A stretch of DNA of 54,981 nucleotides, from the IMG/VR virus record IMGVR_UViG_2875697941_000003. The stretch is one strand, 5' to 3'. Under the pieces are notes generated by a model that ran no database searches, was not told where the DNA came from, and saw only the letters and a list, made by a program, of their open reading frames with translations. The position numbers and the translations under genes are program-made. Below are positions 1 to 32,080 of this stretch, piece by piece; within the stretch, counting starts at the first letter, position 1, and every line of letters begins with the position of its first letter. The DNA comes from a virus. Taxonomy: Duplodnaviria > Heunggongvirae > Uroviricota > Caudoviricetes.

Positions 1-316
1 TATAATAAACTTACTTTTTTATCATTTTTCCACTTTAACAACATTTTGCTCCACTTTTCCACGANCAAACAACTTGAAATCTGGTTAAAATAACACGCAA
101 CACTATTCTTCTTCCTTGAGTCCGCCCGGAACTCGAAAAACAAACCGAGTTAAAGCCATTTTTCACAAAATCGATTTTGGGTCTCACCAAAATTACGGGG
201 TTGCATACGCATTCGTTTATTTTCGAACGTGTACATACAAATATGCACAAAAATAATCANAATTATTTTCTGAGATGCATTATGATATGAACACCAATTT
301 CGTATAGAGTCTCACT

Positions 317-907
317 ATGTCTCGAATTTTTGCTTACTGTCGGATATCAACGCTGGATCAGACCANCGAAAATCAACGCCGGGAAATCGAAAGTGCAGGT
401 TTTAAAATCAAACCTCAGCAAATAATCGAAGAACACATTAGCGGCTCAGCAGCAACCAGTGAGCGTCCTGGTTTTAACCGGTTGCTTGCTCGCCTGAAAT
501 GTGGTGATCAATTGATTGTGACAAAACTGGATCGCCTTGGTTGTAATGCAATGGATATCAGGAAAACAGTGGAACAACTGACCGAAACAGGTATCAGAGT
601 GCATTGCTTAGCATTGGNNGGCATTGACCTGACCAGTCCAACAGGAAAAATGATGATGCANGTAATTTCAGCAGTCGCTGAATTTGAACGAGACCTTTTA
701 CTTGAACGCACTCATTCCGGGATAGTAAGAGCCCGCGGCGCAGGGAAACGTTTTGGTCGACCACCTGTGTTAAATGAAGAACAGAAACAGGTGGTATTCG
801 AACGAATTAAGTCAGGTGTAAGTATAAGTGCCATTGCCCGGGAATTCAAAACCTCGCGGCAAACCATTTTAAGAGCCAAAGCAAAACTTCAGACACCTGA
901 CATATAA
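317..907 (+). CDS. pinR: Serine recombinase / DNA invertase (Pin/Gin/Hin family, PinR-like), 196 aa
   Basis: N-terminal catalytic motif YCRISTLDQ with the nucleophilic Ser, C-terminal HTH; sits next to tail-fibre genes as in Rac/e14; four N bases lie inside the ORF. Confidence 0.85.
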
Positions 908-925
908 AAAATAATCTCGGTGTGA

Positions 926-1204
926 GATGCTTTACGTCTTCCAAGCCCCCTTCCTTGCCGTAAATGGAAAGATACATCTAATTATAGAATTTATATGTTT
1001 TACCCTACGGCAGTGCTGGCCATTCAATATCCTGTGCAGTTGACGTATCAACACNNNNNNNNNNNNNNNNNNNNNGATGCTTTACGTCTTCCAAGCCCCC
1101 TTCCTTGCCGTAAATGGAAAGATACATCTAATTATAGAATTTATATGTTTTACCCTACGGCAGTGCTGGCCATTCAATATCCTGTGCAGTTGACGTATCA
1201 ACAC
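926..1204. repeat. Exact 129-bp tandem duplication (926-1054 and 1076-1204) split by a 21-N gap; probable assembly artifact
   Basis: Identical flanks on both sides of N run 1055-1075. Confidence 0.7.
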
Positions 1205-1880
1205 GGTTCAGCAATACCCGATACTTTTTCCATGCTTCCAGCAACGAGATTTCTTCCTCCGTTGCAATTTCCAGATCTGCAGCATCCTGAAGCGGCGCAA
1301 TATGCTCACTGGCTACCTGCATCAGGTTGTTTTTTGTTTCTTCCGCCTCCCGGATCCGGAACAGTTTTTCTGCTTCCGTATCCTTCACCCAGGCTGTGCC
1401 GTTCCACTTCTGATATTCCCCTCCCGGCGATAACCAGGTAACATTTTCCGGTAACGGACCGAGTTCAGAAATAAATAACGCGTCGCCGGAAGCCACGTCA
1501 TAGACGGTTTTTCCCCGATGATCTTCAACGAGATGCCACGATGCCTCATCACTGTTGAAAACAGCCACGAAGCCTGCCGGAATATCTGGCGGTGCAATAT
1601 CGGTACTGTTTGCTGGCAGACCTGTATGAGGCGGAATATATGCGTCACCTTCACCAATAAATTCATTAGTTCCGGCCAGCAGATTATAAATTTTTATGGT
1701 CCGTGGTTGTTCACTCATTCTGAATGCCANNNNNNNNNNNNNNNNNNNNNCGGTACTGTTTGCTGGCAGACCTGTATGAGGCGGAATATATGCGTCACCT
1801 TCACCAATAAATTCATTAGTTCCGGCCAGCAGATTATAAATTTTTATGGTCCGTGGTTGTTCACTCATTCTGAATGCCAT
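1155..1880 (-). CDS. tfaR: Tail fibre assembly protein (Tfa family); ORF inflated by an N-gap duplication
   Basis: Lambda Tfa-like N-terminus [24 protein letters not shown]... appears twice in the ORF because of the 1601-1879 duplication; lies directly downstream of the side tail fibre gene. Confidence 0.75.
1601..1879. repeat. Exact 129-bp tandem duplication (1601-1729 and 1751-1879) split by a 21-N gap; probable assembly artifact
   Basis: Identical flanks around N run 1730-1750. Confidence 0.7.
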
Positions 1881-4800
1881 TATGCAAGCCTCACAATATA
1901 GTTAAATGCGATGTTTTTGACGGTGTTTTCCGCNTTACCAGCAGCGTTAACGGTGATGGTGTGTCCATGTGAACCAATCGCAACGGAGTGCGTATGAGCA
2001 CCAATACCGACAGTATGCGCGTGTGCACCTGCAGATGCTGCTGTGCCGGACAGTGANTGGCTATGATTACCATCTGTACTGGTATTNGCTAACCACCCCG
2101 TAGACATACCTACTGAGCCTTGTACACCCCAGGTATTTTGACCTGAGCTTGTATAACCATATTGATAAGTATCTTTAAAAACACTGGGGTTAAATCGACG
2201 GCCATCTCTATGGCTGTGATTACCAGCTGCATTCGTGCTGCCACNNNNNNNNNNNNNNNNNNNNNAGCCTTGTACACCCCAGGTATTTTGACCTGAGCTT
2301 GTATAACCATATTGATAAGTATCTTTAAAAACACTGGGGTTAAATCGACGGCCATCTCTATGGCTGTGATTACCAGCTGCATTCGTGCTGCCACTTAAAC
2401 TATGAGTATGCGCACCAGTGTTATTCGTGGATTTAGTGCCGTAATCAAACGATGATGTGGTTTTCGTACCCAAATCCGTACTGGATACGCTGGCGCTGTG
2501 GGTGTGCGATTTAATGCCGTCCTGTTCCTGAGACAATACGGCACGACCACTGGCGGGCTTGCCCTTAATCGTCCAGCCACGCATATCAGGGATCACGCCT
2601 GACGGATAAGCGGCTGCAAGTTTCGGGTAAGCAGATTTGTCAAAAGTCTGCCCCTGCATCAGGGCATAACCAGACGGAACGGTATCTGATGGCCACGGGA
2701 TTGGTGCGCCGACTGGGTAGCTTTCTGGTGGAAGATTTTTCGAGGTATAAACTTCTGCCCAGTCTTCCTCAAAACCATAACCGTCTCTTGAAGAACGGTA
2801 GAACAGACCACCATTTCTGTAATGCGCCTTCATCTGCAGGGTCCGGCAACTTCCGACTCCGGTATAGAAGTTAACCAGAATATAGCTGTCGCCAGAGCGG
2901 GTGACATTGTAAGCGCCTGATTCGGCATTCCAGGGAACGCCACCATCCGCATCGGCATATGTATCCGTTGCCCTTCTGGCAAAAGCAGCCACATGCGCGG
3001 CGGTTAAAGTAATATCTTTTGAACCATCAAACTCAACCCCAGAAACCAGTCTTGGCGTTTGCAGCTTTGTTGCTGTCAATGCGTTACCGTTCAGACTTGC
3101 AGACAGCTTGGTTCCAATAACCAGTTCGCCGGTTGCGTTATCAATAGCAAACGGTCTTAATGTATTCCATCCACCATAAACATCACCTTGATTGGTAAGC
3201 AGCAGGTAAGTTTTAGCGCCATCATTACGCCATAATGCCCCATACTCCCCACCTATCATTCGAATCTGATTACCACCACGCGCTACAATTTCGTCTGTGG
3301 CAAAAAGTTTTTTGCACGACAAGTTATCGTTAACGATTAACGAATGAGACTCATAAAAACCACGCCCACTCTTAAAATCAAGGATAACGTCCGCCGCGAT
3401 ACATTCAGTCGCTGGATTTGTTGCCCCAAACTTATAGGTCGTATCATTAACAACGAGATCAGCACCAGGTGCGGATATTGACAGGCCATCTTCGATAAAC
3501 GCAAAAACAGGGAAAGCAGCGCCATCAACATAGAACACAGAGCGCAAATCATCGCCCTTATTACTCATCATTATTGAGTGGATGGCTCGTTCATTGTTTT
3601 GATATTGCCAGAACATTCCATAAGCATAACGCCCCCTGTCAGTCCAGCCACCAGGCATAACAAATCCGTTAAACTCGCAGTTATTCATCGGATCGCCTGC
3701 GGTTCGCGTTGCCGTGGTGATAATGACCCTTGATGCCAGTTCGCTTACTGAGCCAGCAGAACGCATAACAACAACAGGGTAATATTTTCCAGATGTTGCA
3801 CCTGCAGGAGCGTTAACCCGCACATAACGCATACCACGCTTATCAGCAAAGTCTGTTTTACTGACCGCGTTAATGTTGTTCAGGAAGCGTCCCTTATCGG
3901 GTATATCAGCGCCGTTCTGGTCTTTCTGCAGACGTTTCTCTGCATTGTCATAGGCTGATTTTACTGCCTTTGGCGTTGCCGCCAGCGTTTCAGACGTGCT
4001 GTTGGTCGCGCTGCTTAGCTGGATTATCCCTTTCTGTGCTGTCGTTGCATCCTGTGCGGTGTATTTCCCGTTAGCCAGGTCATACGCGGCCTTAACGGCT
4101 TTTGGCGTTGCCGCCAGTGACTCGGAAGTGCTATTGGTCGCACTGCTGAGCTGTACTATCCCCTTTTTCGTCGTGCTCGCATCCTCAAGCGCCACGGCGG
4201 ATGCAATATCCTCTGCCCGTTTTGCCGCTGTCTCAGCGCGCGTTGCCGCGGATTCCGCCGTACTTTTGCTCTGAGCTGCCGCCGTCGCACTGCCAGCTGC
4301 CTCTGTCGCCTTCGTGGATGCCGTCGTGGCGCTGCCCTTCGCTGCGGACGCTTGTCTGGTCGCCTCATCTTTTGAAGCAGACGCAGATGATGCCGATGAC
4401 GCCGCCGAACTGGCGGACGATGCGGCAGCCGTTTTTGAGGATTCTGCGCTGGTTTCCGACGCTTTCGCGTTCGTCTCGGATGTCTTCGCTGCGGAAGCAG
4501 ACCTCGCTGCTGCGCTGGCCTGTACAGCGGCTTCGCCAGCCTTCGTTGTGGCTGTTGAAGCGGACGATGCAGCACTTTCTGCCGATTTTCCGGCGGCGGT
4601 GGCACTGGCTGAGGCCTGCCCGGCACTTGTTGACGCGGCACTGGCAGACGACGCAGCCGCTGTTTTTGAGCCTGCCGCAGCTGAGGCACTCTGTCCCGCT
4701 GCCGTTTCAGAAGACCTGGCGTTTGTCTCAGACGTCTTTGCCGCCTTCGCGGAATTGCCTGCCGCCGTTGCCGAGGAAGCGGCACTACTGGCGCTTGATG

Positions 4801-5560
4801 ATGCGTTCGTTTCTGATGATTTCGCTGCCTCTTTTGAGGCCGCCGCATCCCGGGCTGAGGTGGCAGCTTCTGACGCTTTCGTGGTCGCGGTGGATGCTGA
4901 AGTGGCTGCTGATTGTTGTGACGCTGCCGCATTCGTTTCTGACGTTTTTGCCGCAGCGGCACTGGTGGCCGCCGCGCTTTTTGAGGACTCTGCAGCGGCA
5001 GCACTTTTTGATGCTTCAGTGGCCTTTGCTGATGCCGTTCCTGCGCTGGAAGACGCTGACTGAGCCGACGAAGCGGCCTGTCCGGCTGACGTGCTGGCTG
5101 CGCGTGCTGAGCCTGCAGCATCAGTCGCATGGGTTGCCGCCTCACGGGCAGATGTGCCGGCATCGCCGGCTGACTTCTTCGCGGCTGCCGTGTTCTGTGC
5201 CACTGCGGACGCGTTACGCGCCACCTCTTCCACCATCAGTTCAAAACGGCGCAGTGCCTCTGGCCGGACATCATCCTCCGTCATTGCACCGAGGAAATCA
5301 TTCAGTGTGCCCGGCTTTGAGTCCTCATATACGGTGATAATCCCGGCGTGTGACGGCGGGAATCCCTCCACCAACAGACTGACGCTGTACTGACCATACT
5401 CGACGTCCATTGTGTAACGCCCGGCTTCATCCGGGTTTTCTGAGGCCACTGTGTTCACCACCACCGTGGTGCTGTTGCGCCTGGCCTTTAGCTGAATGGT
5501 GCAGTTTTGTATCGGCTTACCTGCGCCATCTTTCAGTACACCTGAAATCCGTACTGCCAT
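1880..5560 (-). CDS. stfR: Side tail fibre protein (Stf-like): lambda-Stf-like N-terminus, Ala/Ser-rich repeat shaft, His-rich distal repeats
   Basis: N-terminus [38 protein letters not shown] matches lambda Stf; C-terminal [15 protein letters not shown]...[11 protein letters not shown]; contains N-gap duplication 2116-2394 and single Ns. Confidence 0.85.
2116..2394. repeat. Exact 129-bp tandem duplication (2116-2244 and 2266-2394) split by a 21-N gap; probable assembly artifact
   Basis: Identical flanks around N run 2245-2265. Confidence 0.7.
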
Positions 5561-5571
5561 ATTCCCCCCAC

Positions 5572-5598
5572 AAAAAAGCCCGCCTGAACCGGCGGGCT
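5572..5598 (-). terminator. Rho-independent terminator downstream of lom
   Basis: Minus-strand hairpin AGCCCGCC-GGTTCA-GGCGGGCT followed by TTTTTTGTGG. Confidence 0.75.
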
Positions 5599-5624
5599 GT
5601 CATAACACTGTGTTACCTGGCTAA

Positions 5625-6224
5625 TCAGAATTTATAACCGACACCAACGATGAAACTGTTGGTACGCCAGTCACCGCTGCCGGAGCCTTCATAAGCGACG
5701 TCAACGGCCACGGATTCGGTCGGGTTAAACTGCACGCCAGCTCCCCACGCCAGAGAGGTGTTACTGTGGCGAGCGTCATCACTTCCGGTCAGCACGTCGT
5801 GCGTTTTTCCCTTGTTGTCAGTTACGCGGAGATAATCCCCGGAAAAAGTCGACACACGGCTGTAAGCCACGCCTGCCATCGCATACGCGCTGAACCATTC
5901 ATTCACGCGTACAGACGGCCCCGCCATCACGCTGAACCAGCGGTTACGCACGGAATCTTCATGCCAGCGGGTATCGCTGTAACGGGTAAGCTGGCGATTC
6001 TTGTCTCCTGCATAGCTGAACGACGTCACCATCCCCAGTGTGTCCGTAAACTCATAACGGTATTTCACGTTAATCCCGTTCAGATCATCACTGCCGGGAA
6101 CGTTCGTCCGGGCATGAAGATACCCCGCGCTCAGCGTGGACTGATGTTCAGACGCCCATACAGGCGCACCGGATACGGCCAGACAAATGGCTGCGGACAA
6201 AATGGCTGCACAAACTTTACGCAT
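5625..6224 (-). CDS. lomR: Outer membrane beta-barrel protein Lom (Ail/Lom family), 199 aa
   Basis: Signal peptide, aromatic C-terminal residue (GYKF), lambda-Lom-like sequence and position between J and stf. Confidence 0.85.
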
Positions 6225-6248
6225 AATTACCTCTCGCTTTTCTGCAAT

Positions 6249-6273
6249 AAAAAAGGCGCCATTTCTGGCGCCC
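6249..6273 (-). terminator. Rho-independent terminator between J and lom
   Basis: Minus-strand hairpin GGGCGCC-AGAAAT-GGCGCC followed by TTTTTTATTG. Confidence 0.7.
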
Positions 6274-6291
6274 GTATATGGGTTATAAAAT

Positions 6292-9200
6292 TCAGCTGAT
6301 ACTGATGCCTGCGGTGGCTTTCTTCATCACCACAACCAGCAAATCGCTGATACTTGCTGTGGGATACCAGTCATTTACCAGCCATGCTGACACCGAAAAC
6401 TCCAGCGTCATGTGGCCGTGACCAGCTGGCATATCAATAACACCACTGTAAATCAGCGTATTATCCAGCGCGGTACGGTTATAAATTTCAGCACCATTTT
6501 TCTTCACTATCAGGCGGCATGAGGAGTAAATATCAGTATGCTCTCTCTCATGTTTAGCACCGCTGAATGCCACCGCCGGAATAACAATCTGCCGGTCAAA
6601 CGGCTGATCGTCATAAATCCTGACGGTAATGGTCCCTGATGGCCACCGCTCCGGTGCCCGGGAGTCCCGCGGGAAAGCCTTACCCACTGTTTTGACAATA
6701 TCGCCTTCAATCTGGTTGGCTGACAGTTTCCCTTTAATCTGACAGTTCTCATTTATCGTAACGTTGTTGAGCGTCCCGGCGTTCGCATTCACACTGCCAC
6801 TGATATCTGCATTTTTAGCGGTCAGCTTTCCGTCCGGTGTCATGGAAAATGCAGGAGGATTACCGCCGCTGGTAATGGTGGGAGCCGTCAGATATTTCAG
6901 GAACACTTCATTCATGAATATCTGATCACCCTGACCAACAAACATCGGTTTTGTGTTGCCATTTGCAGGATTAATCATCGCAATCCTGTCTGCCGCCAGC
7001 AGCACCTGACTCTGCATGCCGTCGGGGGTGTTCTCAATACCGGCACCGATACCCGCAATATAAAGGCGTCCGTCCTGCATCTGCTGCAGCTTCACAGCCC
7101 ACATGCTGTTCAGATTATTATTTGTATCAACCTGAACCTTCTGTATCTGCTGGATCGCTGCACTCTGGTCTTCCAGTTTCTTATTGACGGTCTGTGTGAT
7201 TTCATTGCTGACATCCGTAATGGACGTCCTGATTTCAGCCAGGTCAGGCGCAAGCTGACCGTTATCAATCTGCGTCCACAGCTCCTGAGCCAGATGGGTT
7301 TTCCCTATCTCGCCTTTGAAAAAATCCAGATAGCCGGATGCGTCATCACTCGGCTGACCAACAGCCTCCACGAATGCCGATTTGCCAACGGTGTTCACAC
7401 TGCGAACGTAAAAATAATAATTATGGCCCGGCCTGATATTGATACTGGCGGCTATCCAGTACAGCGCCGTACCAAGATAGCGGGCTGTGGTTTCAACCTG
7501 CCTGATATCCGCAATCCGCTTTTCCGAGAACCAGAACTCAAACTGTACCGTCGGGTCATAAACGGCAAGATGCGGCGTGGCGGTTATCTGAAAATAGCCC
7601 GGCGTCAGCTCAAGCCGCGACGGCACTGCAGGTGCGGCAATCCGGAACGATACCGATGCCGGATCGCCCTGCTGCCCCCACGCATTTACCGCCCGGACTG
7701 TCAGCCTGTAGTTCCCTGGCGCCAGCTGCGTGAAGCGGTATGTGGTTTCCGTCGTCCGGGCCGTGCTGACCAGCCGCTCACTGCCGTCATCCGCTGCCAC
7801 GGTCAGGCGAAGCAGGAAGCTCACGCCCTTCACCACCTTCGGCGTGTCCCAGCGCGCCAGCACCTGATATTCCCCGCTGTCTGCGGTGACTTCGGCGGTC
7901 AGGTGCTGCACCGCTGGCGGCGTGACACCATTCACCGTGCCGCTCTGGTCGCCGTCAAAGTGCGCCCCGTTATCCACGATGGCTTCTTTTTCCGGTACAT
8001 GCTGCACGGCAGTGATGGCATACGTGCCGTCATCGTTCTCACGGATACTCACACAGCGGAACAGGCGCTGGCGCAGCGTCGGCAGCTTCAGCCCCCACAC
8101 ACTGTATTCTGCAACGCCGTCAGGAACCCGGTTCACTTTCACCTTAAGTCCGTCGGTGACGGACTGAACCTCCACGCTGACCGGATTACCACTTCCGTCA
8201 ACCAGGCTTATCAGCGTGGTACCGGAGGATGGCAGCGTGATTTCACGGTCGAGCGTCAGCGTCCGGGTCTGGCTGTTCACCGCCAGCACGCGACCACCGG
8301 TGCTGATACCGGCATAGTCATCATCGCAGATTTCAATGACATCCCCCGGTACATGGCGAAGCCCTTCCGCACCCACGCTGAAGTCCACGGTCTGCGTCTC
8401 CAGCAGTTCCGTTTTAATCAGCCACAGCCCGGCGCGGTGTGCCTGCCCCCGGCTGGTACAGCCAAAGGCATCCATCTTCGTGACATTACGACCGTAACGG
8501 GCAATGGCCTGCGTATCTTCAACAAGCTCTGTCGCCGTCTCCCAGCCGTTGTCCGGGTCAATCCAGTTCACCTCAACGGCATTATGGCGGTCCTTCAGGG
8601 CGCTGAAGCTGTAGCGGAACGGCGCGCCATCATCCGGCATCACCACATTACTGCGGTTATAGGTCCACACCTTATCCGACGGTCGGTCCTGCNNNNNNNN
8701 NNNNNNNNNNNNNCAGTTCACCTCAACGGCATTATGGCGGTCCTTCAGGGCGCTGAAGCTGTAGCGGAACGGCGCGCCATCATCCGGCATCACCACATTA
8801 CTGCGGTTATAGGTCCACACCTTATCCGACGGTCGGTCCTGCACGAACGTCAGCGTCTGCCCGTTCCATACCGGCATACAGCGCATCGCCGAGCAGAAAT
8901 CACTGAGCACATCCCACGCCTTGCGCTGTGTGGTCAGGTACGCATTACAGGTGATGCGCGGCTCCGTGCCGCCAAAGCCGTCCGGCACTGACTGGTCGCA
9001 GTACTGGCCGATGACATACAGCGCCCATTTGTCCACATCCGCCGCACCAAGACGTTTCCCCANNNNNNNNNNNNNNNNNNNNNTCAGGTACGCATTACAG
9101 GTGATGCGCGGCTCCGTGCCGCCAAAGCCGTCCGGCACTGACTGGTCGCAGTACTGGCCGATGACATACAGCGCCCATTTGTCCACATCCGCCGCACCAA

Positions 9201-10207
9201 GACGTTTCCCCATGCCGTAGCGTGGATGGGTCAGCATATCCCACAGACACCAGGCCATGTTATTGCTGTATGCTGGCTTAAACGTTCCGTCCCAGATACC
9301 GCTGTATTGCCGAGTCTGCGGGTTATAGTTCGACGGCACCTGCAGAATACGCCCGCGCAGATGATAATTACGGCTCACCTGCTGGCTGCCGAACTGCTCC
9401 GAATCCACCTGTACGCCGACCAGTGCCGTGTTCGGGTAGCACTGTTTCACATCGATGATTTCGGTGTATGACGACCAGAGCGTTTTGTTCTGCAGCTGGT
9501 CTGTGGTGCTGTCCGGCGTCATCCTGCGCATCCGGATATTGAACGGGCGCGGCGGCAGGTTACCCACCACCACCGATGCCAGATACTGCGAGGTGGTTTT
9601 GCCTTTAATGGTGATGTCTTTTTCCGTCACCCAGCCACCATTACGCTGTATCTGAACCAGCAGGCGGACTTCCGACGGATTCCGGTCCCCCTTTGAGGTG
9701 GTTTCCACCAGTGCCTGCACACCGAAGGTAAAGCGCAGACGGTCGATGTTTGCCTTTTTCCGTCACCCAGCCACCATTACGCTGTATCTGAACCAGCAGG
9801 CGGACTTCCGACGGATTCCGGTCCCCCTTTGAGGTGGTTTCCACCAGTGCCTGCACACCGAAGGTAAAGCGCAGACGGTCGATGTTTGCCGACGTGATGG
9901 TCCTGGTAATCGGCGTGTCGTACTTCACTTCCGTACCCAGCACCGTCTCGGAGCCGGAGGATTCAAATCCCTCCGGCGGTGTCTGCTCCTGCTCACCGGC
10001 CCGGAACACCACCGTGACGCCGGATATATTGGTATTCCCCTCACTGTCCAGCACCGGCGTACTGTTCAGCAGCACGCTTTTTAATCCGTCCACCGGACCT
10101 TCAACCGGCCCTTCGCTGATGGCATCGATCACACTCAGCAGCTGCGTGGACTTCAGGTTGTCCTTCGCTTCGCGCGGGGTATGCCCCTTACTGCTGCCTT
10201 TACCCAT
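6292..10207 (-). CDS. Tail tip / host-specificity protein J (central tail fibre); frame broken in this sequence by duplications
   Basis: Lambda-J-like sequence throughout; ORFs 6292-9720 and 9641-10207 are two pieces of one gene split by the 136-bp tandem duplication at 9619-9890; two N-gap duplications also lie inside. Confidence 0.85.
8564..8842. repeat. Exact 129-bp tandem duplication split by a 21-N gap (Ns 8693-8713); probable assembly artifact
   Basis: Identical flanks on both sides of the N run. Confidence 0.7.
8934..9212. repeat. Exact 129-bp tandem duplication split by a 21-N gap (Ns 9063-9083); probable assembly artifact
   Basis: Identical flanks on both sides of the N run. Confidence 0.7.
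9619..9890. repeat. 136-bp perfect tandem duplication without Ns (9619-9754 and 9755-9890) inside J; shifts the frame
   Basis: Direct comparison of the two copies; 136 is not a multiple of 3. Confidence 0.7.
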
Positions 10208-10267
10208 TCGTCATGCTCCATAAACGATAAAACCGCCCGGAGGCGGTTTCACATAAAACATTTTGCA

Positions 10268-10909
10268 TCAGCGACCAATCACCACAACCTGACCACCATC
10301 CCCTTCGTCTGCCGTGCTGATCTCCTGAGAAACCACGCGTGACCCCACGCGCATTTCACCGTACAGAACCGGCAGAACATTGCCCTGGGCAACCATGTTA
10401 TCCAGTGAAGAAAAATAGGTATTCTGTTTGCCGTTATCCGTTGTCTGTGTGCGGGGGGTTTTGGGTTTAGGGGCCAGCATCTGTGCAACACCGCCAAGCG
10501 TCATACTGGCACCGAGAGAAAACAGCAGATTACTCGCCATAATTCCTACCCCCGGCATCCATATAGCAACCGCCATAACAGCCGCCCCCAGCACAGCCTG
10601 AAACACACCGCCACTTTTGGCTCCTGCCAGACGCGGCACGATATGGATCACGGCACCATTTTCCAGCGGCTCATTAAGACGGGCAGACAATTCGGTTTCA
10701 CCTGCATCACGCCCGGCAATCCGTACCTGATACCAGCCGTCGCTCAGTTTCTGACGAAATGCCGGGATCTGCATGGCCAGCGCCCGGATGGCTTCGGACC
10801 CCGTTTTCACTCGAAGGTCGATGCGGCGGCCAAATCGTTGTAAATCCCCGTAAAGGCAGATGCGTGCCATGCCCGGTGACGCCAGAGGGAGTGTGTGCGT
10901 CGCTGCCAT
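10268..10909 (-). CDS. Tail assembly protein I
   Basis: Lambda-I-like sequence with C-terminal hydrophobic segment; position between K and J. Confidence 0.8.
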   Translation of the reverse strand: MAATHTLPLASPGMARICLYGDLQRFGRRIDLRVKTGSEAIRALAMQIPAFRQKLSDGWYQVRIAGRDAGETELSARLNEPLENGAVIHIVPRLAGAKSGGVFQAVLGAAVMAVAIWMPGVGIMASNLLFSLGASMTLGGVAQMLAPKPKTPRTQTTDNGKQNTYFSSLDNMVAQGNVLPVLYGEMRVGSRVVSQEISTADEGDGGQVVVIGR

Positions 10910-11153
10910 TTGTCGGTGTACCTCTCTCGTTTGCTCAGTTGTTCAGGAATATGGTGCAGCAGCTCGCTGTCACCACAGTAAATGGCGGCATGATTCGGCA
11001 CCGATGAACCAAAACAGCACGGAGTGTGTGCGTCGCTGCCATTTGTCGGTGTACCTCTCTCGTTTGCTCAGTTGTTCAGGAATATGGTGCAGCAGCTCGC
11101 TGTCACCACAGTAAATGGCGGCATGATTCGGCACCGATGAACCAAAACAGCAC
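10888..11153. repeat. 133-bp perfect tandem duplication without Ns (10888-11020 and 11021-11153) at the K/I junction; shifts the frame
   Basis: Direct comparison of the two copies. Confidence 0.7.
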
Positions 11154-11683
11154 AGCAGCACATCGCCCGGCTGCGCCGCTGACAACGGCACCTGATACAG
11201 CCCTGTGGCCTCCAGATTATCCAGATAGAGATTCTGACCGTTACGCCACCAGTCATCCCCGCGATGAAAATCCGGCATCTCAATTCCCGCCAGATGGTAA
11301 GCGTCCCGGAACAGCGTGTAACAGTCCGTTACCCCGTGCTCAAAGCGCCGCCCGGTGAGATGCGGCACACAGCGGAATTTATGAATCGCCCCCCGGCAGA
11401 CCAGCCACCACGGCAAATCACTCTGTACCTGCAGCCGCCGGTCGGCCTCACTCAGCCAGGGCAGACCACCGGGGTGGCTGTGGACCAGCGCCACAATCTC
11501 TCTCTGCATTTCTGCACTCAGCCAGTCCTCCGGCGACATCCGGAAATACTCCTCCGGCTCACCGGAGATATTCACGCAGGGAAAATATCTTTCCTCCTCC
11601 GGCGTTCTCACCACGAAGCCGCACGACTCCGCTGGCGCACATCGCCGGGCGTGCGCCAGAATCGCTGATTCTGTCTCTGTCAT
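10970..11683 (-). CDS. Tail assembly protein K (MPN/JAB plus NlpC/P60-like); C-terminus displaced by the 133-bp duplication
   Basis: Lambda-K-like sequence including HSHPGG motif; the authentic C-terminus continues in ORF 10807-11001. Confidence 0.8.
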   Translation of the reverse strand: MTETESAILAHARRCAPAESCGFVVRTPEEERYFPCVNISGEPEEYFRMSPEDWLSAEMQREIVALVHSHPGGLPWLSEADRRLQVQSDLPWWLVCRGAIHKFRCVPHLTGRRFEHGVTDCYTLFRDAYHLAGIEMPDFHRGDDWWRNGQNLYLDNLEATGLYQVPLSAAQPGDVLLCCFGSSVPNHAAIYCGDSELLHHIPEQLSKRERYTDKWQRRTHSVLFWFIGAESCRHLLW

Positions 11684-11688
11684 GGGAT

Positions 11689-12387
11689 TTACTGCGAAAG
11701 TTTGTTAATGGAAAGGAAGCTGCCAAAGTTGCCGACATTATTGCGAAACTTACAGCCACTCAGGCATTTGCTGCATTTATCCTTCGTGATATCGGACGTC
11801 GGCTGGTCATATTCATCCGCGACCGCCGGACCGCTATAACCGCACTCATCGCCGCGATAGGTCCAGGTGCAGGTGTTGGCCAGCATGATACGTCCCGGAA
11901 AAACAGCGCCATCCGTTTCAGTCGGCGTGGACAGTACAAAAGAGGCACTGACCGCGCTCAGTTCGCTGCACTGCTCGATGCGCCAGCGGCTGATCACCTC
12001 CTGCTCCGGATCGGCTTCGCTGTTTCCGTTGACGAAGTTCACCGCATCCAGAAAGCGGGCGTAAACCTTACGCCGGACCACCGTTCCGCCGACCAGACTC
12101 TGCAGATCTTCCGCCATCCCGGTGATCATGCCGTGCAGGTTAGAGACCGTCAGTGTCGGACGGGCAGCACTGCCCTTGCCGTTCATCTCAAATCCACTCC
12201 CCTGAATGGGATAGGCCTGATACTGCCGACTCTGCCAGGTGACAGACTCACCTTTTTCGTTCTGCTCATTACAGAAAAAGTAGCGATCCCCGCCTACCTC
12301 GGTCAGGTCGATTTCCCAGAGCACCACGCTGGCCGACTGCTCCGCACGAATGCATTCATTCAGCGTTTCCTGTTGTATGTCCTGCAT
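11689..12387 (-). CDS. Tail tip protein L
   Basis: Lambda-L-like sequence, C-terminal Cys cluster, gene order. Confidence 0.8.
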   Translation of the reverse strand: MQDIQQETLNECIRAEQSASVVLWEIDLTEVGGDRYFFCNEQNEKGESVTWQSRQYQAYPIQGSGFEMNGKGSAARPTLTVSNLHGMITGMAEDLQSLVGGTVVRRKVYARFLDAVNFVNGNSEADPEQEVISRWRIEQCSELSAVSASFVLSTPTETDGAVFPGRIMLANTCTWTYRGDECGYSGPAVADEYDQPTSDITKDKCSKCLSGCKFRNNVGNFGSFLSINKLSQ

Positions 12388-12725
12388 CAGATCACCACTT
12401 CGTCAAACTGACACGAAAAATCGGTATAGGTGATATGTTCTGTCGCTGACCACGTTCGACACACCACTCTGATTTTTCTGTTAATACCCGGCGGGCGCCA
12501 AAAAAAAGATTTATAGCCTTCATGCCGGGCTAAAAATTTTTCAAATGAATCACGTTCATTCGCCTCAACTTTGAAATCACAGGTGAAAACGCGCAGAGAA
12601 TGATTAAGTCCATTTGGACTTCGTTGCTCATAACCATCGCCAAATCTTACAGTTTTTATCGATGGTTTATTTTCTGTTTTCATTCCATCCTCTGGTAACC
12701 AGTGAAATTCTTCCGTATTAGCCAC
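12387..12725 (-). CDS. Minor tail protein M
   Basis: Lambda-M-like ([10 protein letters not shown]... / FDEVVI C-terminus); position between H and L. Confidence 0.8.
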
Positions 12726-15700
12726 TTAACATTCCCCCATCACGTCGCATATTTAACAGATTGCCCTGCACCCGCTGATCAACCATCCCCATAAGTGCTT
12801 TTATTGCCTGAGGGCCAATCTCTCCATTCTGGCCGTCATTTTGAATAGTGATTTGGTATACAGGGGCATAGGTAATATCTCCGCCTCCATTACCACTTTT
12901 ACTATTAATAGCTCTGACACCAAGAGAACCATCGGAAGTTCGTGTTAATGGCATAATGGCTTCCGGTCCAGCCTCACCAAAAACACCAGCCCCTTTTGCA
13001 AAAGCAAAAAATTGCGGGGAATCATAAATACCGTTCGAATACGTGCTCAATGACGGAGACTCATAAACACCGCCCTTTGCATTCGGAATAAATTTACTAA
13101 TAGCACTCCCGATAGTTCCTAAAATCCCCCCAGAAGAACTGTTACTAATGCTGTCGAAAATCCCAGTAATTGAAGCCTTTAATGCTATTCGACTAAGATC
13201 CGAAATCACGGAAGTAGCGAAAGAACGAAAATTTGCCTTGCCTGTCGTGACAAAATCACCCAGCGCATCGGTCATCCCATCAAACATCTGAGTCGTGGTT
13301 GATTTTATCTGCTCACTGATATCCTTAGTGTCATCCAGCCAGTTATTGAATCCCTGGGAGGCACCACTAACCCAGTCTCCTGCCTGAATATCGAGCTGCT
13401 CGTTTTTCTGTCTGACAATTTCTTTTTCCCGTTCCAGAGCATCATTCAGAGCCTGCATTTTCTCTTGAAAAACATGATCTGACATTCCACGGGATTTATC
13501 TGCATAGTCACGTTCAAGTTGCAGACGCTGATTGTTATATCCATGTTCAATCCGCAGTAATTCCTGCTGGCGTTGCTGATTTTTATCGCCAACCCCATAA
13601 CCAGCAATCTGAATATCATACCCCTGCTGACGATTATCAATCGAAGCCTGCAATGAATCACGCCATGCTGTTATTTCGGCGGATTCCTTGATTAGCCTGT
13701 TATTTTTTTCAATCGCAACATTTTTCTCCATCAACGTGGTTATTTCTTCCCGGTGTAAGAGAAGCGATTTCTGATCCTGGGTTAATTTCGATGATGGTCG
13801 TGACTCTAGGTCGGCAATCCGCTGACGCCACTTAACCAGTTCCTGTTCAGAGGAACTTAATTTAACGGTCAACTCAGCTTGTGAACTTAGTAACGCATTC
13901 TGTTGATTCAGATGATCAATCATTCGTTGGGCTGCATCATCAGAATAATCTTTCGCCTTTGGTTGCTTTGGATCTTTATAACGCTCATTTATTTGAGCGA
14001 TAAGATTATTATATTCTTCCTTTGAATACTGATTCTTTAGCTTTTCCAGTTTTGCAAGTTCACTAGCTCTCTGCTGCTCCCGGGTCTGATATTGTTTTGA
14101 AAAGGCATCTGCTCTCTGTCTGAGTTCAATTCCTTCCTGTTGTCGCTTGTTGTAATCGTTTATTGATGAATTTAGTACGTCCTGAGCAATTTTTTCTGCT
14201 TGAAGTACGCCCAATTGCTGCTTTAATCGTGCCAGCCTTTTATTTTGAGCTCCGCCATCTCCAATGCCACCTAACCCGAAAACTCCGGATCGGGTATTTT
14301 TTTCTATTTCATCAATTTGACGGAGAACATCTGAGATTTTTTGATCAAGGGAGGCCTCACGGCCAATATCCAGCATGGAATCCCATGCCCATTTTGCGGA
14401 GTCTGCGACAGCTTTCCATGCAGTCTCAAGATAACCAAGATTTTCTTTAATCTGGTTGGTGCGCTGGATCATTGAGGATGAGTATTCTTCTGTCGCAATG
14501 CGGGCGGCCTCCTGCTGGTTCCCTTCATCCTGTAGCGCCTTAATCTGGTTATAAGTCGCAAGTGTCAGAAAATGGTACTGATCATTAAGTTTTGATATGG
14601 CACTGACAGGATCCTTTGCAATTTCATTGAAGTCATTAACCAGTTGTTCGGTTGATATTCCTGTTACTTCGCTCGTTTTTACTATCGCTGTCGTCACTTG
14701 CTCCAGCGAACTGCTCGCTACCTTTCCCGAACGCACAAGCTGATTTAATACTGCCGCCGCAGCACCAGTTGTCGAATCAGCCGCATTCCCGGCACGTTGA
14801 GCTAAATCGCCCAATTGCCCGCTGGTTGTCCCCAACTGATTTCCGGTAAGAATAAGAGATTTATTAAATTCGTCCTGCTCCTGAGAGCCTTTATAGTAAG
14901 CCAGTCCTAAGACCCCAACGGCTGCTGCGGCCAGGGTAAAAGGATTAATTAATCCCAGCACATAAGAACCTACCCCTTTGATCGCCGGGCCAATCCCACC
15001 GAACATATCTTTTAGCTGGCCGCCCTGCTGCATTAACACCATAAATGGCGACTGACCAGTGGACAACCCAACAACAATATCCGTCATTTGTGCAGGCAAC
15101 ATGCGCATAGCAAAAGCCGTTTGTTTTGCCGACATTCCGGTTTTGCTTAATTGTGATTGAGTAACCTCAAGCTCACTCCGCATAGCACGAAGTTTTCCAG
15201 AAAGCTCCTCATACATTTCAGGAGAAAGCATCCCCTTAGCTTTTGCTTCATTGAGCTGTTTCTGTTGTTCTACCAGACGATTAAAAGCAGTTCCGACAGG
15301 ATCAAGTTGAGCAATCAGACGTTGCAAAGCAACAACCTGTTCATCATGCGCTTTTGCTGCTTCTCGCTCTGCCTGAGCCTCTCCGGTAAGCTCTCGCCGT
15401 GTTTCCTGTATTTTTCGGCTATAATTCTCAAACTGAGAACCATTTATTTTCCCGGATGCAAACGCAGCATTAAGTTCATCATGCTGTTGTTCAAGATTTC
15501 TTAGCGCCGCAGCCAGAGGGTCGATCTTGTCCAGCATTCTTTGAAAGGCCTGAGCCTGCGCTTCCTGCTGGGCGGCAGCAAGTTTTCCGGCCTTCTCGGC
15601 TTCTCTCTGCGCTTGCGCAACCCCGCTCAATTCCTCTGTGGTTTCATTAAGTTTACGGACAAGAAATTCATATTCTTCTTTATCAATAAGCCCTTTATCG

Positions 15701-25617: not shown

Positions 25618-26683
25618 TCCTTAATCTGGCATCAACCACATTAATATTGATCGCCACAGGCTGGGGATGTTCATTATCCTCCACCGTTTCGATCTCTTTG
25701 CGCAGCTTCTGGTTCTCTATTCTGCGCCGTTCAATTTCCAGTTCCTGTAGCCGCTTATCTGCACATAATGCCCCGCCAGCAGAAAGCAAACGCAACAATT
25801 CACGCCGGGCGGCAGCCTTATCCTCCAGCAGGATCTCAACACCGTATTTTCCGAGCTTTGACCCTGCATATAATTGCCGCGCATCCCCATCAAGCAGTGT
25901 GGTATCAGCCATATAAAGCTGTCCTGTTCCCTCACCGCAGCACTTCGGGCAATCAGGATTGGGTATGGCGTTATCAACAAAGCCGAGGCCTCCATATTCC
26001 GGCTCGGGTTTACCATCTCTGGAGGCCTGTGCCGCAGCCTTATCGAATTCTGCAATATCACGCCACTGGTAGAGATGATTCTCGCCCCAGCAATAACGGC
26101 AGTTAACACGGCGAAATTGTGCCAACTGATTGGGGTCGGCCTGGACAATGGCCATCAACTGGCTCACCAGTAAATCCAGGTCTGCGGTATAGCGTTTCTG
26201 GTACTGATTGCGGAAGTAGCTGATAGCACGATAAACCCTGGCATTTCTAAGCATACGGCTGGCGTTGCTGTTAGCTGTCGCACCTTGCCCCTCATAACCA
26301 GCCAGTCGGTATGCCTCTGTCGGCTTTTTCCCCTGAGCAACCAACATGGCGAATTTTGCCTGCTGGTCAGAAATACCGAATTCATCGGGGCAGAACGAAA
26401 TTTCTTCCGTGTCCCCCTCAATCAGGAGTGCATCGGATACAGCCTTTTTTTTCTGAGATTTTCCGTTCTGCCTTTGCGCAGTCTGCGCAGTTTTTTTTCG
26501 CGCACTTTTTTGCGCAGTTTTGCGCATTTCTTTCTGCGCATTTTTCGGAGTTTTTTTGATGTAACGACGGGCTGTTGCGTAGTTCAGTCCCCTTGCTTCA
26601 CACCATGCCACCGGAGATATACCGGAGCGGGTGTATTCAGCAATATACTCCTGCTGCAACGCCCCCCAGTCCGGTCTGCTCAT
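25589..26683 (-). CDS. Terminase small subunit with extra N-terminal HTH and a Cys-rich (CxxC...CxxCC) region
   Basis: Terminase_2-type motif FAMLVAQGKKPTEAYRLAGY...ASRMLRNARV; directly upstream of TerL. Confidence 0.65.
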   Translation of the reverse strand: MSRPDWGALQQEYIAEYTRSGISPVAWCEARGLNYATARRYIKKTPKNAQKEMRKTAQKSARKKTAQTAQRQNGKSQKKKAVSDALLIEGDTEEISFCPDEFGISDQQAKFAMLVAQGKKPTEAYRLAGYEGQGATANSNASRMLRNARVYRAISYFRNQYQKRYTADLDLLVSQLMAIVQADPNQLAQFRRVNCRYCWGENHLYQWRDIAEFDKAAAQASRDGKPEPEYGGLGFVDNAIPNPDCPKCCGEGTGQLYMADTTLLDGDARQLYAGSKLGKYGVEILLEDKAAARRELLRLLSAGGALCADKRLQELEIERRRIENQKLRKEIETVEDNEHPQPVAININVVDARLRSDEDDLSDA

Positions 26684-28730: not shown

Positions 28731-30188
28731 TTAGGAGCGCCAAAAAAAACCTGAAAACAATATAATAACAGGATAAATTTCAAGGCGACCAAGAATCATA
28801 GCTATGCACATTAAACATTTTGCAATGTCATTAAGCACTCCGAATGACGATGCAGTAGCCCCAAAACCTAATCCCATATTATTAATACATGCAGCCACTG
28901 TTGCAAATGATGTAAGAAAATCATATCCCATACCATTTAACACCAGTATAAAAAACACCGTGAAGAGAGTATAAAGAAAAAAGAAACTCCATACAGACCT
29001 CATTACACGATCTGTAACTATCTTCCCTCCTACATTTACACTCAACAACGCTCTGGGATGAGAAAGCTGATTTATCTCATGTTTGCTTTGTTTGAAAAGT
29101 ATAAGAAATCGAAGTGACTTAATTCCACCACAAGTTGAACCTATACATCCCCCAAAGAAACTTGACAACAGCAAAAACACTATCGTGTGCGTGGGCCAAC
29201 TTGCATAATCCTGCGTAGCTAAACCATTATCAGTGAGCATGGAGCTGGCAAGAAAAAACGAATGAATAAAACTTCCATGCAAGTCATACATACCTATATG
29301 CCAGACCTGGAAAGAGGTAACAATGATCACCCCTAAGGCTATTAACAGAAAGAAACGAAGTTCAATATCTCTGATTAAAGGTTTTATCGTTTTCCTGCTA
29401 ATAACAATATACCAAAGAGTGAAGTTGAAAGCCGATAGCAGGGAAAAAGAACCAGCCACCAGCTCAACCAAATAGTTATTAAAATATCCGATACTCTCGC
29501 TATGAGTTGAGAAACCACCAAGCGAAACTGTGGAAATCCCGTGACAAATAGCATCAAACAAAGGCATTCCTGCAAGTCTATAACAGACAATACAAGCAAT
29601 ACCTAATAAAGAATAAGTTATCCACAGTGTCCGTGACGTATCGGCCAGGCGGGGAGTGAGTTTGTCATCCTTAAATGGCCCCGGCATTTCTGACTGATAA
29701 AGCTTTGCACCACCAATACCCAATAATGGCAATACAGCAACCGCCAGAACAATAACTCCTAAACCACCTATAAAATTTAACTGTGACCGATAGTACAAAT
29801 ATGCCCGAGGTAATGAACTAACATCATCAATTACAGTTGCTCCTGTTGTTGTTATTCCAGAAACCCCTTCAAACAGAGCATCAATGAACGTTAAATTAAG
29901 TTCTGAGTCAATCCATAAAGGGAATGCACTAATAACAGAAAACAAAATCCAAAACATTACAATTATAATAAACCCATCACGGGTACGTAATTGAATGCCA
30001 GATTTCTTAGTTGTATACCACGCTCCGCCACCAATGCAAAAAAATATAACGAAAGTTATAAAGAAAACGAACAGGCTTTTTTCTTTATAAAACAATGCTA
30101 CAACCATTGGTGGCAACATTGAAAGACTATAGAGCCAAACCAGGAACCCACACATATGAGTAACAACTCTTACATGAGATGTATTCAT
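28731..30188 (-). CDS. trkG: Trk-system K+ uptake protein TrkG (TrkH/TrkG family), prophage-borne
   Basis: Sequence MNTSHVRVVTHMCGFLVWLYSLSMLPP... recognised as K-12 Rac TrkG; multi-pass membrane protein. Confidence 0.9.
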   Translation of the reverse strand: MNTSHVRVVTHMCGFLVWLYSLSMLPPMVVALFYKEKSLFVFFITFVIFFCIGGGAWYTTKKSGIQLRTRDGFIIIVMFWILFSVISAFPLWIDSELNLTFIDALFEGVSGITTTGATVIDDVSSLPRAYLYYRSQLNFIGGLGVIVLAVAVLPLLGIGGAKLYQSEMPGPFKDDKLTPRLADTSRTLWITYSLLGIACIVCYRLAGMPLFDAICHGISTVSLGGFSTHSESIGYFNNYLVELVAGSFSLLSAFNFTLWYIVISRKTIKPLIRDIELRFFLLIALGVIIVTSFQVWHIGMYDLHGSFIHSFFLASSMLTDNGLATQDYASWPTHTIVFLLLSSFFGGCIGSTCGGIKSLRFLILFKQSKHEINQLSHPRALLSVNVGGKIVTDRVMRSVWSFFFLYTLFTVFFILVLNGMGYDFLTSFATVAACINNMGLGFGATASSFGVLNDIAKCLMCIAMILGRLEIYPVIILFSGFFWRS

Positions 30189-30325: not shown

Positions 30326-30802
30326 TTACTTTAAACACTGCTCGGTTATGTATTGCTGAGCACCTTCAAGTTGGGCCTGCATCATTACCAGTCGTTCCCG
30401 GAGGGTGAAATAATCCCGTTCAGCGGTGTCTGCCAGTCGGGGGGAGGCTGCATTATCCACGCCGGAGGCGGTGGTGGCTTCACGCACTGACTGACAGACT
30501 GCTTTGATGTGCAACCGACGACGACCAGCGGCAACATCATCACGCAGAACATCATTTTCAGCTTTCGCATCAGCTAACTCCTTCGTGTATTTTGCATCGA
30601 GCGCAGCAACATCACGCTGACGCATCTGCATGTCAGTAATTGCCGCGTTCGCCAGCTTCAGTTCTCTGGCATTTTTGTCGCGCTGTTCTTTGTAGGCGAT
30701 GGCGTTATCACGGTAATGATTAACACCCCATGACAGGCAGACGACGATGCAGATAACCAGAGCGGAGATAATCGCGGTTACTCTGTTCATTGCTGACCCC
30801 AC
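30326..30802 (-). CDS. Spanin inner-membrane subunit Rz (i-spanin)
   Basis: Near-identical to lambda Rz (N-terminal TM, coiled coil). Confidence 0.9.
30385..30570 (-). CDS. rzoR: Spanin outer-membrane lipoprotein Rz1 (o-spanin), nested in +1 frame inside Rz
   Basis: [23 protein letters not shown]... lipobox plus PPPPP stretch, lambda Rz1-like. Confidence 0.85.
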
Positions 30803-31200
30803 AAACAGATTTCACGCTCAATCTCACGACGAGTCATGAGACCTTTCCATTGCTTACCGCCAGCATATGTCCAGCGACGTAGCTGATCACATGCGCCTTT
30901 GATATCGCCCTGGTTTATTTTGCGAAGAAGCGTCGATGTTCTGAAATTGCCAGCACCCACGTTGTAAACGAATGAGTANTTCGTGTATTTTGCATCGAGC
31001 GCAGCAACATCACGCTGACGCATCTGCATGTCAGTAATTGCCGCGTTCGCCAGCTTCAGTTCTCTGGCATTTTTGTCGCGCTGGGCTTTGTAGGTAATGG
31101 CGTTATCACGGTAATGATTAACAGCCCATGACAGGCAGACGATGATGCAGATAACCAGAGCGGAGATAATCGCGGTTACTCTGTTCATTGCTGACCCCAC
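30787..31200 (-). other. Chimeric duplicate segment: Rz N-terminus (73 codons), single N at 30979, then endolysin C-terminus; probable misassembly
   Basis: ORF translation switches from Rz sequence to R sequence at the N; the copy differs from the full Rz by a few substitutions. Confidence 0.6.
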
Positions 31201-31679
31201 AAACAGATTTCACGCTCAATCTCACGACGAGTCATGAGACCTTTCCATTGCTTACCGCCAGCATATGTCCAGCGACGTAGCTGATCACATGCGCCTTTGA
31301 TATCGCCCTGGTTTATTTTGCGAAGAAGCGTCGATGTTCTGAAATTGCCAGCACCCACGTTGTAAACGAATGAGTAAAGAGCGCCGCGCGTTGTTTCCGG
31401 TATATCGACTTNGATGTACGGGTTAATTTGTCTGGCGACNGTGGCAAGGTCTTTATTCAAGAGTGNTTTGCATTCTGCTTTGGTATACGTTTTACCGAGC
31501 ATGATGTCTTTTCCTGTATGCCCGTGACATACAGTCCATACACCAACAATATCTTTGTATGGTATGTAGCTGACACCTTCCAGACCATCGTTACCACTTG
31601 GGCCAGTGATTAACACTGATGCTATAGCAATTGCTCCGCCACCAATAGCAGCAACGGCTTTTCGTAATGATGGAGGCAT
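31185..31679 (-). CDS. SAR endolysin (phage 21 R21-type, T4-lysozyme-like muramidase with N-terminal signal-anchor-release domain)
   Basis: N-terminus [26 protein letters not shown] (Gly/Ala-rich SAR TM) and C-terminal lysozyme sequence match R21; three internal Ns. Confidence 0.85.
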
Positions 31680-32080
31680 TATTCACCTCTCGCAGCCTTG
31701 CGCTTATCTTCTTTAATCTTGAAATAAAGGTTTGTCAGGTACGTCAGCAGGCCAAATACCAGGCTACCCAGCACACCTATTGCTGCCCACTGTGAGGGCG
31801 TGACTTTATCGAGCAGCTGTAAAAACCAGTAACCGGCACTACCTGCTGANTTATTCAAGAGTGTTTTGCATTCTGCTTTGGTATACGTTTTACCGAGCAT
31901 GATGTCTTTTCCTGTATGCCCGTGACATACAGTCCATACACCAACAATATCTTTGTATGGTATGTAGCTGACACCTTCCAGACCATCGTTACCACTTGGG
32001 CCAGTGATTAACACTGATGCTATAGCAATTGCTCCGCCACCAATAGCAGCAGCAACGACTTTTCGTAATGATGGAGGCAT
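31679..32080 (-). other. Chimeric duplicate segment: endolysin N-terminus (76 codons), single N at 31850, then pinholin C-terminus; probable misassembly
   Basis: ORF translation switches from R to S sequence at the N; copies differ by substitutions (VVAAA vs AVAA; LLDKV vs LLDRV). Confidence 0.6.

Follow-up and report, generated by a model that had tools for sequence, protein, structure and literature searches.

The window analysed here, a stretch of 54,981 nucleotides, corresponds to GenBank CP035322.1:3733198-3788178, an E. coli chromosome record. Its first part contains the ydfK side and pinR (1-1054) and the minus-strand genes tfaR (1155-1880), stf (1880-5560), which encodes the tail fibre, and the tail-tip gene J (6292-10207). 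Five runs of exactly 21 N interrupt this region, at positions 1055-1075, 1730-1750, 2245-2265, 8693-8713 and 9063-9083. The 129 nt to the left of each run are repeated exactly to its right, giving a period of 150 nt, and the original observation of five gaps with identical 129-bp flanks and a 150-bp unit was confirmed base by base. At each run 129 is the only matching flank length above 1 nt, and each 129-mer occurs only twice in the whole window (both strands were checked), in both cases directly beside its own N run. Chance cannot produce one exact match of 129 nt, let alone five with equal geometry.

The first unit (926-1204, copies 926-1054 and 1076-1204) lies mostly in the pinR/tfaR spacer, as had been described, but also takes in the last 50 nt of tfaR. 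The positions given for the other units needed no refinement. The second unit (1601-1879, copies 1601-1729 and 1751-1879) falls in tfaR, and the third (2116-2394, copies 2116-2244 and 2266-2394) in the 3′ part of stf, where it adds 150 nt and keeps the frame. Both the fourth (8564-8842, copies 8564-8692 and 8714-8842) and the fifth (8934-9212, copies 8934-9062 and 9084-9212) are located in J. The reported doubling of the Tfa N-terminus is present as residues 2-43, eight X, and residues 2-43 again.

All five sites are real, but the list was incomplete, since the same window contains four further junctions of the same class. Two of them are exact tandem duplications without N. One, at 9618-9890 in J, has a period of 136 nt and shifts the reading frame, splitting J into ORFs 6292-9720 and 9641-10207. 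The other, at 10888-11153, has a period of 133 nt, lies where the tail-tip genes K (C40 peptidase) and I overlap, and frameshifts K (ORF 10970-11683). The remaining two junctions are in the lysis region (30582-32250), where an 870-nt contig (30980-31849) is bounded by one N on each side (30979 and 31850) and the flanks of each N overlap by about 397-400 nt.

Comparison with closed genomes

We collapsed positions 1-14000 of the window by removing one copy and the Ns at each junction, which left 12,981 nt. This sequence was identical to the closed genomes NZ_AP045736.1 and NZ_CP073953.1 at 12,972 of 12,981 positions, and the nine exceptions were isolated Ns. For a 12,000-nt query, the 25 top closed genomes listed spanned 10,980-10,981 nt, save one with an IS21-family insertion.

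It had been proposed that the units inflate or break the ORFs in which they lie, and that ORF lengths should be compared with homologues after removal of one copy. In the record tfaR measures 726 nt (241 aa) versus 576 nt (191 aa) in closed genomes, stf 3681 nt versus 3531 nt, and J 3916 nt versus 3480 nt (+150 +150 +136); J is frameshifted by the 136-nt copy, and the gene calls of the public record fragment it at the N runs. Collapse restored the closed-genome lengths of 576, 3531 and 3480 nt.

The two N-free junctions, of 136 and 133 nt, had no match in 5,426 closed E. coli genomes at a strict E-value limit. The 133-nt junction gave no match in viral, genome and metagenome collections (three large public sets), relatives in the phage collection that was searched were single-copy only, and an exact look-up of the chimeric J ORF 9641-10207, which is made by the 136-nt copy, returned no match. 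The K ORF 10970-11683 did match the source record.

Shared blocks with a second prophage

Strain MB49 carries this Rac-site prophage and, at the argU/DLP12 site, a second lambdoid prophage. The second prophage was observed in MB49 as a proxy genome, the source record having been read only around the window. The source genome contains the Rac-site lambdoid prophage and, by inference, a second one whose pin-tfa-stf-lom-J-I-K and lysis genes are paralogous. In collapsed coordinates, the exact blocks common to the Rac-site prophage and the second prophage of MB49 are 1-1064, 1441-1954, 8104-8472, 8855-9017 and 9986-10151. In MB49 every exact stretch of at least 150 nt common to both prophages coincides with a junction, while eleven shared stretches of 91-148 nt are without one.

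All seven junctions in 1-14000 lie at fixed offsets from the limits of these proxy-genome blocks. At all 21-N junctions the end of the repeat contig lies 10 nt inside the block, and 139 nt of the block are covered by the unique contig. At the first unit, for example, the shared block runs to collapsed coordinate 1064, and the left contig (1-1054), in which a two-copy repeat is collapsed, stops 10 nt earlier; the right contig, a unique tfaR segment, begins 139 nt inside the block. The contig between the fourth and fifth N runs (8714-9062, 349 nt) is itself the shared repeat, which would have had 369 nt before trimming. At the N-free junctions two unique contigs meet, each extending 149 nt into the shared block (150 including the base between them). 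The block is 163 nt long at the 136-nt junction, where one extra base stands between the contigs, and 166 nt long at the 133-nt junction.

Each of the 12 isolated Ns in the window coincides with a difference between the two prophages. The six Ns of contig 1-1054 (65, 260, 366, 618, 619 and 661) are exactly its six paralog differences, and the three of the collapsed contig 1751-2244 (1934, 2057 and 2087), which contains the 5′ end of tfa and the 3′ end of stf, are exactly its three. The collapsed contigs have no paralog differences other than those marked N.

We also derived k=150 unique unitigs from MB49 alone. These were 916-1589, 1806-8252, 8324-9003, 8869-10134 and 10003 onward, and the unique contigs observed in the window were, in collapsed coordinates, 926-1579, 1816-8242, 8334-9003, 8869-10134 and 10003 onward. 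The ends agree to the base, less 10 nt wherever an end adjoins a 21-N gap; contig ends at the N-free joins do not show this shortfall.

The simple k=150 model does not reproduce the junctions of the lysis region, where the left Rac-site contig extends 233 nt into a 268-nt shared run. The 870-nt contig comprises the essD-rrrD-rzpD lysis cassette of the second prophage and carries second-prophage alleles on both flanks. Of its 870 positions, 867 are identical to the MB49 second prophage and the other three are Ns; this match lies 0.89 Mb away from the MB49 Rac site. Compared with the true Rac-site sequence, it overlaps by 397 nt on the left (98.5% identity) and by 400 nt on the right (95.8%), and the true sequence between the two Rac-site contigs is only 76 nt. 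Judged by these sequence matches, the 870-nt contig is misplaced.

Proposed origin of the duplicated ends

Our data strongly support the view that the five units are neighbouring short-read contigs that were scaffolded without merging their overlapping ends, and are thus an assembly artefact and not biology (probability about 0.95). The scaffolding or read-joining artefact suggested originally is supported both by the collapse to closed-genome sequence and by the position of the junctions at the limits of identity with an unlinked prophage. The duplications, the collapse, the coincidence with repeat boundaries and the offsets of 10, 139 and 149 nt were observed directly; which programs were run, and in what order, we infer.

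The assembler would have behaved like a graph whose words or overlaps were about 150 nt long, and contigs would have been broken at exact stretches of at least 150 nt common to both prophages. Unique contigs would then run 149 nt into each shared block, and each block would form a collapsed contig of its own, in which every isolated paralog difference is written as an ambiguity symbol. Because unique contigs reach 149 nt into the shared blocks, neighbouring contigs overlap by 149 nt. The scaffolder may have placed them in the right order but with a one-base placeholder instead of a merge, giving a period of 149 + 1 = 150. A gap closer that stripped 10 nt from each gap edge without refilling would leave 129 duplicated nt (149 - 20) and 21 N (1 + 20). 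For the 163- and 166-nt shared blocks, the block's own contig was probably omitted, so that its unique neighbours, with overlaps of 135 and 132 nt, were set end to end; filling of the placeholder by one base would yield N-free duplications with periods of 136 and 133 nt. In the lysis region the placeholder would have been retained as the single N.

The arithmetic (129 = 149 - 2 × 10; 21 = 1 + 2 × 10; 129 + 21 = 149 + 1) fits a single-N join followed by trimming of 10 nt per side. A word length of exactly 150 is unusual among de Bruijn assemblers, and the data are fitted just as well by 150-nt reads and contigs that reach one nucleotide less than the read length. We rejected a 150-nt overlap (k=151) without a placeholder: in either orientation 11 nt would have to be trimmed from the unique contig and 10 nt from the repeat contig, and at the N-free joins the contigs on the left extend no further than 149 nt. 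SSPACE reportedly writes a single N when an overlap goes undetected. The units fit such an SSPACE-like join followed by edge trimming as in GapFiller, for which 10 nt per gap edge (t=10) is the documented default (Boetzer and Pirovano 2012, PMC3446322). Trimming at this default enlarges a gap by 20 nt, which agrees with a change from 1 to 21 N and from 149 to 129 nt; GapFiller would, however, be expected to refill unambiguous trimmed bases, unlike what is seen in the window. The mixed outcome (five gaps trimmed and unfilled, two back to a single N, two filled) is not readily explained by a gap closer. A published bacterial pipeline combines Velvet, SSPACE and GapFiller and discards contigs below the fragment size, as may have happened to the short-block contigs here (Page et al. 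2016, PMC5320598). Velvet is run in that pipeline with odd k at 66-90% of the read length, from which a 149-nt overlap is not an obvious outcome. Our literature search found no description of the assembly method of CP035322.1 / GCA_004116695.1; the neighbouring accession CP035320 appears in the literature as strain BR02-DEC.

Among artefactual origins, five identical runs of 21 N could also reflect a set spacer length placed between contigs that natively overlap by 129 nt, with neither a single-N stage nor trimming. We regard this as unlikely: the repeat contigs stop exactly 10 nt before the limits of the shared blocks, the unique contigs enter the blocks by 139 nt at N gaps versus 149 nt at N-free joins, two joins of the same scaffold (30979 and 31850) have a single N, 129 + 21 adds up to 149 + 1, and a 10-nt trim per side is a documented default. 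Gap closers can create duplicated flanks, and 129 + 21 = 150 may be read as a filled part plus a remainder, if contigs abutted, the gap was estimated at about 150 nt, and one contig was extended by 129 nt that duplicate the start of the next, leaving 21 N. This is quite improbable, as it would require five identical gap estimates of 150; moreover, the offsets show the same symmetry about the repeat boundary with the unique contig on the left or on the right, and both copy limits are k=150 unitig ends minus 10 nt, not a one-sided extension. Later masking of real sequence by the database or data provider has in its favour that some collections do mask stretches with N, according to the genome collection's description. 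We give it hardly any credence, because masking does not produce identical flanks, the NCBI record in another collection carries the same N runs, and removal of the Ns and one copy gives exactly the closed-genome sequence.

Genuine tandem duplications in the source strain, each with 21 unresolved bases, have nothing in their favour beyond their presence in the deposited record. Five sites of unrelated sequence have units of identical size, no extra length is seen in the closest closed genomes listed, and the N-free junctions are found in none of the closed E. coli genomes searched. The 136- and 133-nt copies, were they real, would inactivate J and K. The copy limits keep a fixed distance, 10/139 nt, from the points where identity with an unlinked prophage ends. 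Junction positions set to the base in this way can come only from an assembly process, and real tandem duplications are therefore effectively excluded. It is also most improbable that at least one duplication, most plausibly an N-free one (136 nt in J or 133 nt in K/I), is real in the source strain and inactivates tail-tip genes, its match to the assembly geometry being coincidental.

Related artefacts and consequences for the record

Artificial duplications at scaffold gaps ('negative gaps') in short-read assemblies resemble the units in having an exact copy on either side of an N run, a size set by a parameter, a position at repeat boundaries, and in their loss on comparison with closed genomes. 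Nothing essential differs; here the geometry is resolved to the base, and one scaffold has three outcomes (21 N, 1 N and 0 N). The window also resembles collapsed lambdoid-prophage paralogs of E. coli (pin/tfa/stf, J and lysis cassettes). In contigs 1-1054, 1751-2244 and 8714-9062, and in the core of 30980-31849, sequence that exists in two copies is shown once, with Ns at paralog differences; this is an assembly state rather than a biological element. Genuine duplications and repeat modules of phage tail fibres are alike in keeping the frame (150 nt) and in affecting tail-fibre and tail-tip genes, which commonly show real mosaicism. Unlike these, the units are exact copies of equal length at unrelated sites, interrupted by N, absent from closed relatives and positioned by another prophage. 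They carry no biological novelty or significance.

CP035322.1, a chromosome-level record, thus contains at least nine unmerged contig joins in one 55-kb prophage. Together the nine joins add about 1.8 kb of false sequence: tfa and stf each gain 50 codons, J is split, K is frameshifted, and a lysis cassette of another prophage is inserted. False variants are to be expected in prophage typing, tail-fibre and host-range comparison, pseudogene counts and pangenomes that use this record. The signature, made up of 21-N runs between two copies of a 129-mer, of single Ns or N-free tandems whose flanks are shorter than 150 nt, and of isolated Ns where paralogs differ, is simple enough for automatic screening and repair.

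Doubled sequence at the N runs and its collapse

Five runs of exactly 21 Ns are present in the window (1055-1075, 1730-1750, 2245-2265, 8693-8713 and 9063-9083). The 129 nt upstream of each run are identical to the 129 nt downstream, other flank lengths above 1 nt gave no match, and each 129-mer occurs in the whole window only at the two sites flanking its run. The original prediction of five gaps with identical 129-bp flanks and a 150-bp unit is exact in the sequence, and its placement of the units is correct overall, with the refinement that the first unit also takes in the last 50 nt of tfaR. The period is 150 nt at all five units, a multiple of three, so that the Ns do not interrupt the reading frames. 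In the Tfa ORF, residues 1-43 are followed by 8 X, by residues 2-43 again and by the remainder (241 aa versus 191 aa in the closed genome), confirming the doubled N-terminus that had been described.

Self-comparison of the window revealed two exact tandem duplications without N in addition to these five: 9618-9753/9754-9889 (unit 9618-9890, period 136), which frameshifts J, and 10888-11020/11021-11153 (period 133), which frameshifts K (C40 peptidase).

A collection of 5,426 complete E. coli genomes was searched by megablast with positions 1-12000, and in 1,122 of these genomes at least 80% of the query was covered by one place. The best matches were 99.9% identical, yet only 10,981 nt long compared to the 12,000-nt query. 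Local alignment to three of the top closed genomes traversed the reference twice at seven places, namely the five 129-nt overlaps at the N runs and the two doubled stretches without N. Removal of one copy (and of the Ns where present) at the seven sites in window 1-14000 gave 12,981 nt, which match NZ_AP045736.1 and NZ_CP073953.1 (strain MB49) throughout, apart from nine isolated Ns. In the comparison with homologues that had been proposed, tfaR, stf and J thereby returned to their closed-genome lengths (576, 3531 and 3480 nt). Over its remaining length the window follows the closed prophage colinearly, except for joins at single Ns (30979 and 31850) and an IS2 in the reference. This IS2 lies in trkG of NZ_AP045736.1 at window position ~28910-28917; 1,327 nt are missing from the window, where the trkG site appears uninterrupted.

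A second prophage in strain MB49 and the limits of the contigs

In MB49, used as a proxy for the source genome, a second lambda-like prophage occupies the intD/tRNA-Arg site (3.38 Mb), 0.89 Mb from the Rac-site copy (2.49 Mb), with its own ydfK-pin-tfa-stf-lom-J-I-K and essD-rrrD-rzpD. In collapsed coordinates (numbering after removal of one copy and the Ns per join), the exact blocks common to the window and this second prophage are 1-1064 (identity broken at N positions only), 1441-1954, 8104-8472, 8855-9017 (163 nt) and 9986-10151 (166 nt). The contigs between the joins are 1-1054, 926-1579, 1451-1944, 1816-8242, 8114-8462, 8334-9003, 8869-10134 and 10003 onward. At all 21-N joins the contig of shared sequence ends exactly 10 nt within the block and the unique contig enters it by exactly 139 nt, while at both N-free joins the two neighbours are unique contigs that each include 149 nt of a short shared block and are separated by a single extra base. 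When the whole window was compared to the second prophage, every exact shared stretch of at least 150 nt coincided with a join; eleven stretches of 91-148 nt, among them 148 nt at 30401-30548, had none.

Unitigs with k=150 were computed from the two MB49 loci alone. The predicted unique unitigs are 916-1589, 1806-8252, 8324-9003, 8869-10134 and 10003 onward; the shared ones end at 1064 or span 1441-1954 (with bubbles), 8104-8472, 8855-9017 and 9986-10151. The observed contigs equal these unitigs minus 10 nt at each end abutting a 21-N run, and the scaffold lacks the two shared unitigs of 163 and 166 nt. The 136- and 133-nt tandems belong to the same artefact class, with unique contigs overlapping inside these two short blocks.

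The twelve isolated Ns (65, 260, 366, 618-619, 661, 1934, 2057, 2087, 31412, 31440 and 31466) mark ambiguous positions in contigs that collapse two copies into one, and may originally have been IUPAC codes. The nine within 1-2260 are the only nine paralog differences within the collapsed contigs, and the three in an 870-nt segment (30980-31849) likewise fall on paralog differences.

Origin of the joins

Our data demonstrate that contigs were broken where sequence common to two prophages begins or ends and that overlapping neighbours were concatenated without merging. The five units are an assembly artefact and not a real feature, explained almost to the base, and we assign a probability of about 95% to their being unmerged contig overlaps. 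The suspected scaffolding or read-joining artefact is borne out by a collapse that restores the closed-genome sequence and by join limits matching the second-prophage blocks; its extent is greater than reported, with nine joins instead of five.

A one-base placeholder would have been set between contigs overlapping by 149 nt, and 10 nt would then have been trimmed from each gap edge (129 = 149 - 2x10; 21 = 1 + 2x10). A scaffolder such as SSPACE would put a single N where an expected overlap is not found. Given this arithmetic and the joins by a single N at other places of the scaffold, the specific order of a single N followed by 10-nt trimming seems somewhat favoured. Velvet, SSPACE and GapFiller form a widely used bacterial pipeline, in which short contigs are discarded (PMC5320598). 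The 149-nt reach could correspond to k-1 (k=150), to k (k=149) or to read length minus 1 (150-nt reads).

Real tandem duplications in the source strain are practically excluded: the sites have unrelated sequences but the same size, and their limits are set by an unlinked prophage. Furthermore, neither N-free junction had a match among the 5,426 closed E. coli genomes, and the 133-nt junction had none in viral, genome and metagenome collections. Two other kinds of artefact, a fixed 21-N spacer and one-sided over-filling of a gap, fit the 10-, 139- and 149-nt offsets less well than unmerged overlaps. Later masking cannot create identical flanks, and the NCBI record has the same N runs.

Lysis-region joins and source record

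The single Ns at 30979 and 31850 (region 30582-32250) flank the 870-nt contig, which shares only 97% identity with the Rac-site sequence; the overlap between the two is about 397 nt (98.5% identity) on one side and 400 nt (95.8%) on the other. It equals the second prophage of MB49 (3.38 Mb) at 867 of 870 positions, the other three being Ns. This contig is the essD-rrrD-rzpD lysis cassette of another prophage, spliced into the Rac-site lysis region. The k=150 model misses both joins: the left Rac-site contig ends 233 nt inside a shared run of 268 nt, the contig on the right begins 13 nt ahead of a paralog difference, and the 870-nt contig has a 76-nt core with 397 nt on each side, both flanks carrying alleles of the second prophage. 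Possible reasons for this geometry are that the source genome contains a third lysis paralog or that contigs were extended during gap closing.

The window corresponds to CP035322.1:3733198-3788178 (GCA_004116695.1; chromosome of 5,052,397 nt), a chromosome-level record with scaffold joins still inside, and the only one among the records searched that matches the K ORF frameshifted by the 133-nt copy. Since the N-free junctions were unmatched in the RefSeq complete-genome collection searched, CP035322.1 appears to lie outside it. In its gene calls for the stretch CP035322.1:3741167-3747880, J is represented by separate products of 182, 115 and 799+ aa divided by N runs, and the frameshifted N-terminal piece has no gene call, which explains why an exact protein look-up gave no match. 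A literature search found no description of the assembly procedure of CP035322.1; the adjacent accession CP035320 is cited as strain BR02-DEC (PMC6723558).

The window is a full-length lambdoid prophage at the Rac site, extending from just past ydfK to the end of intR, adjoining ttcA. By our own arithmetic its true length is about 53.2 kb, compared to 54,981 nt deposited; Rac of K-12 is a remnant and far smaller. The prophage carries recET, kilR, sieB, ralR and trkG and, according to the annotation of a closed relative, a cargo block encoding a BCCT transporter, DUF2254, a LysR regulator, gamma-glutamylcyclotransferase and an MFS transporter. An imperfect tandem repeat is present at 26473-26545 (period 36, 2.1 copies, 82% matches).
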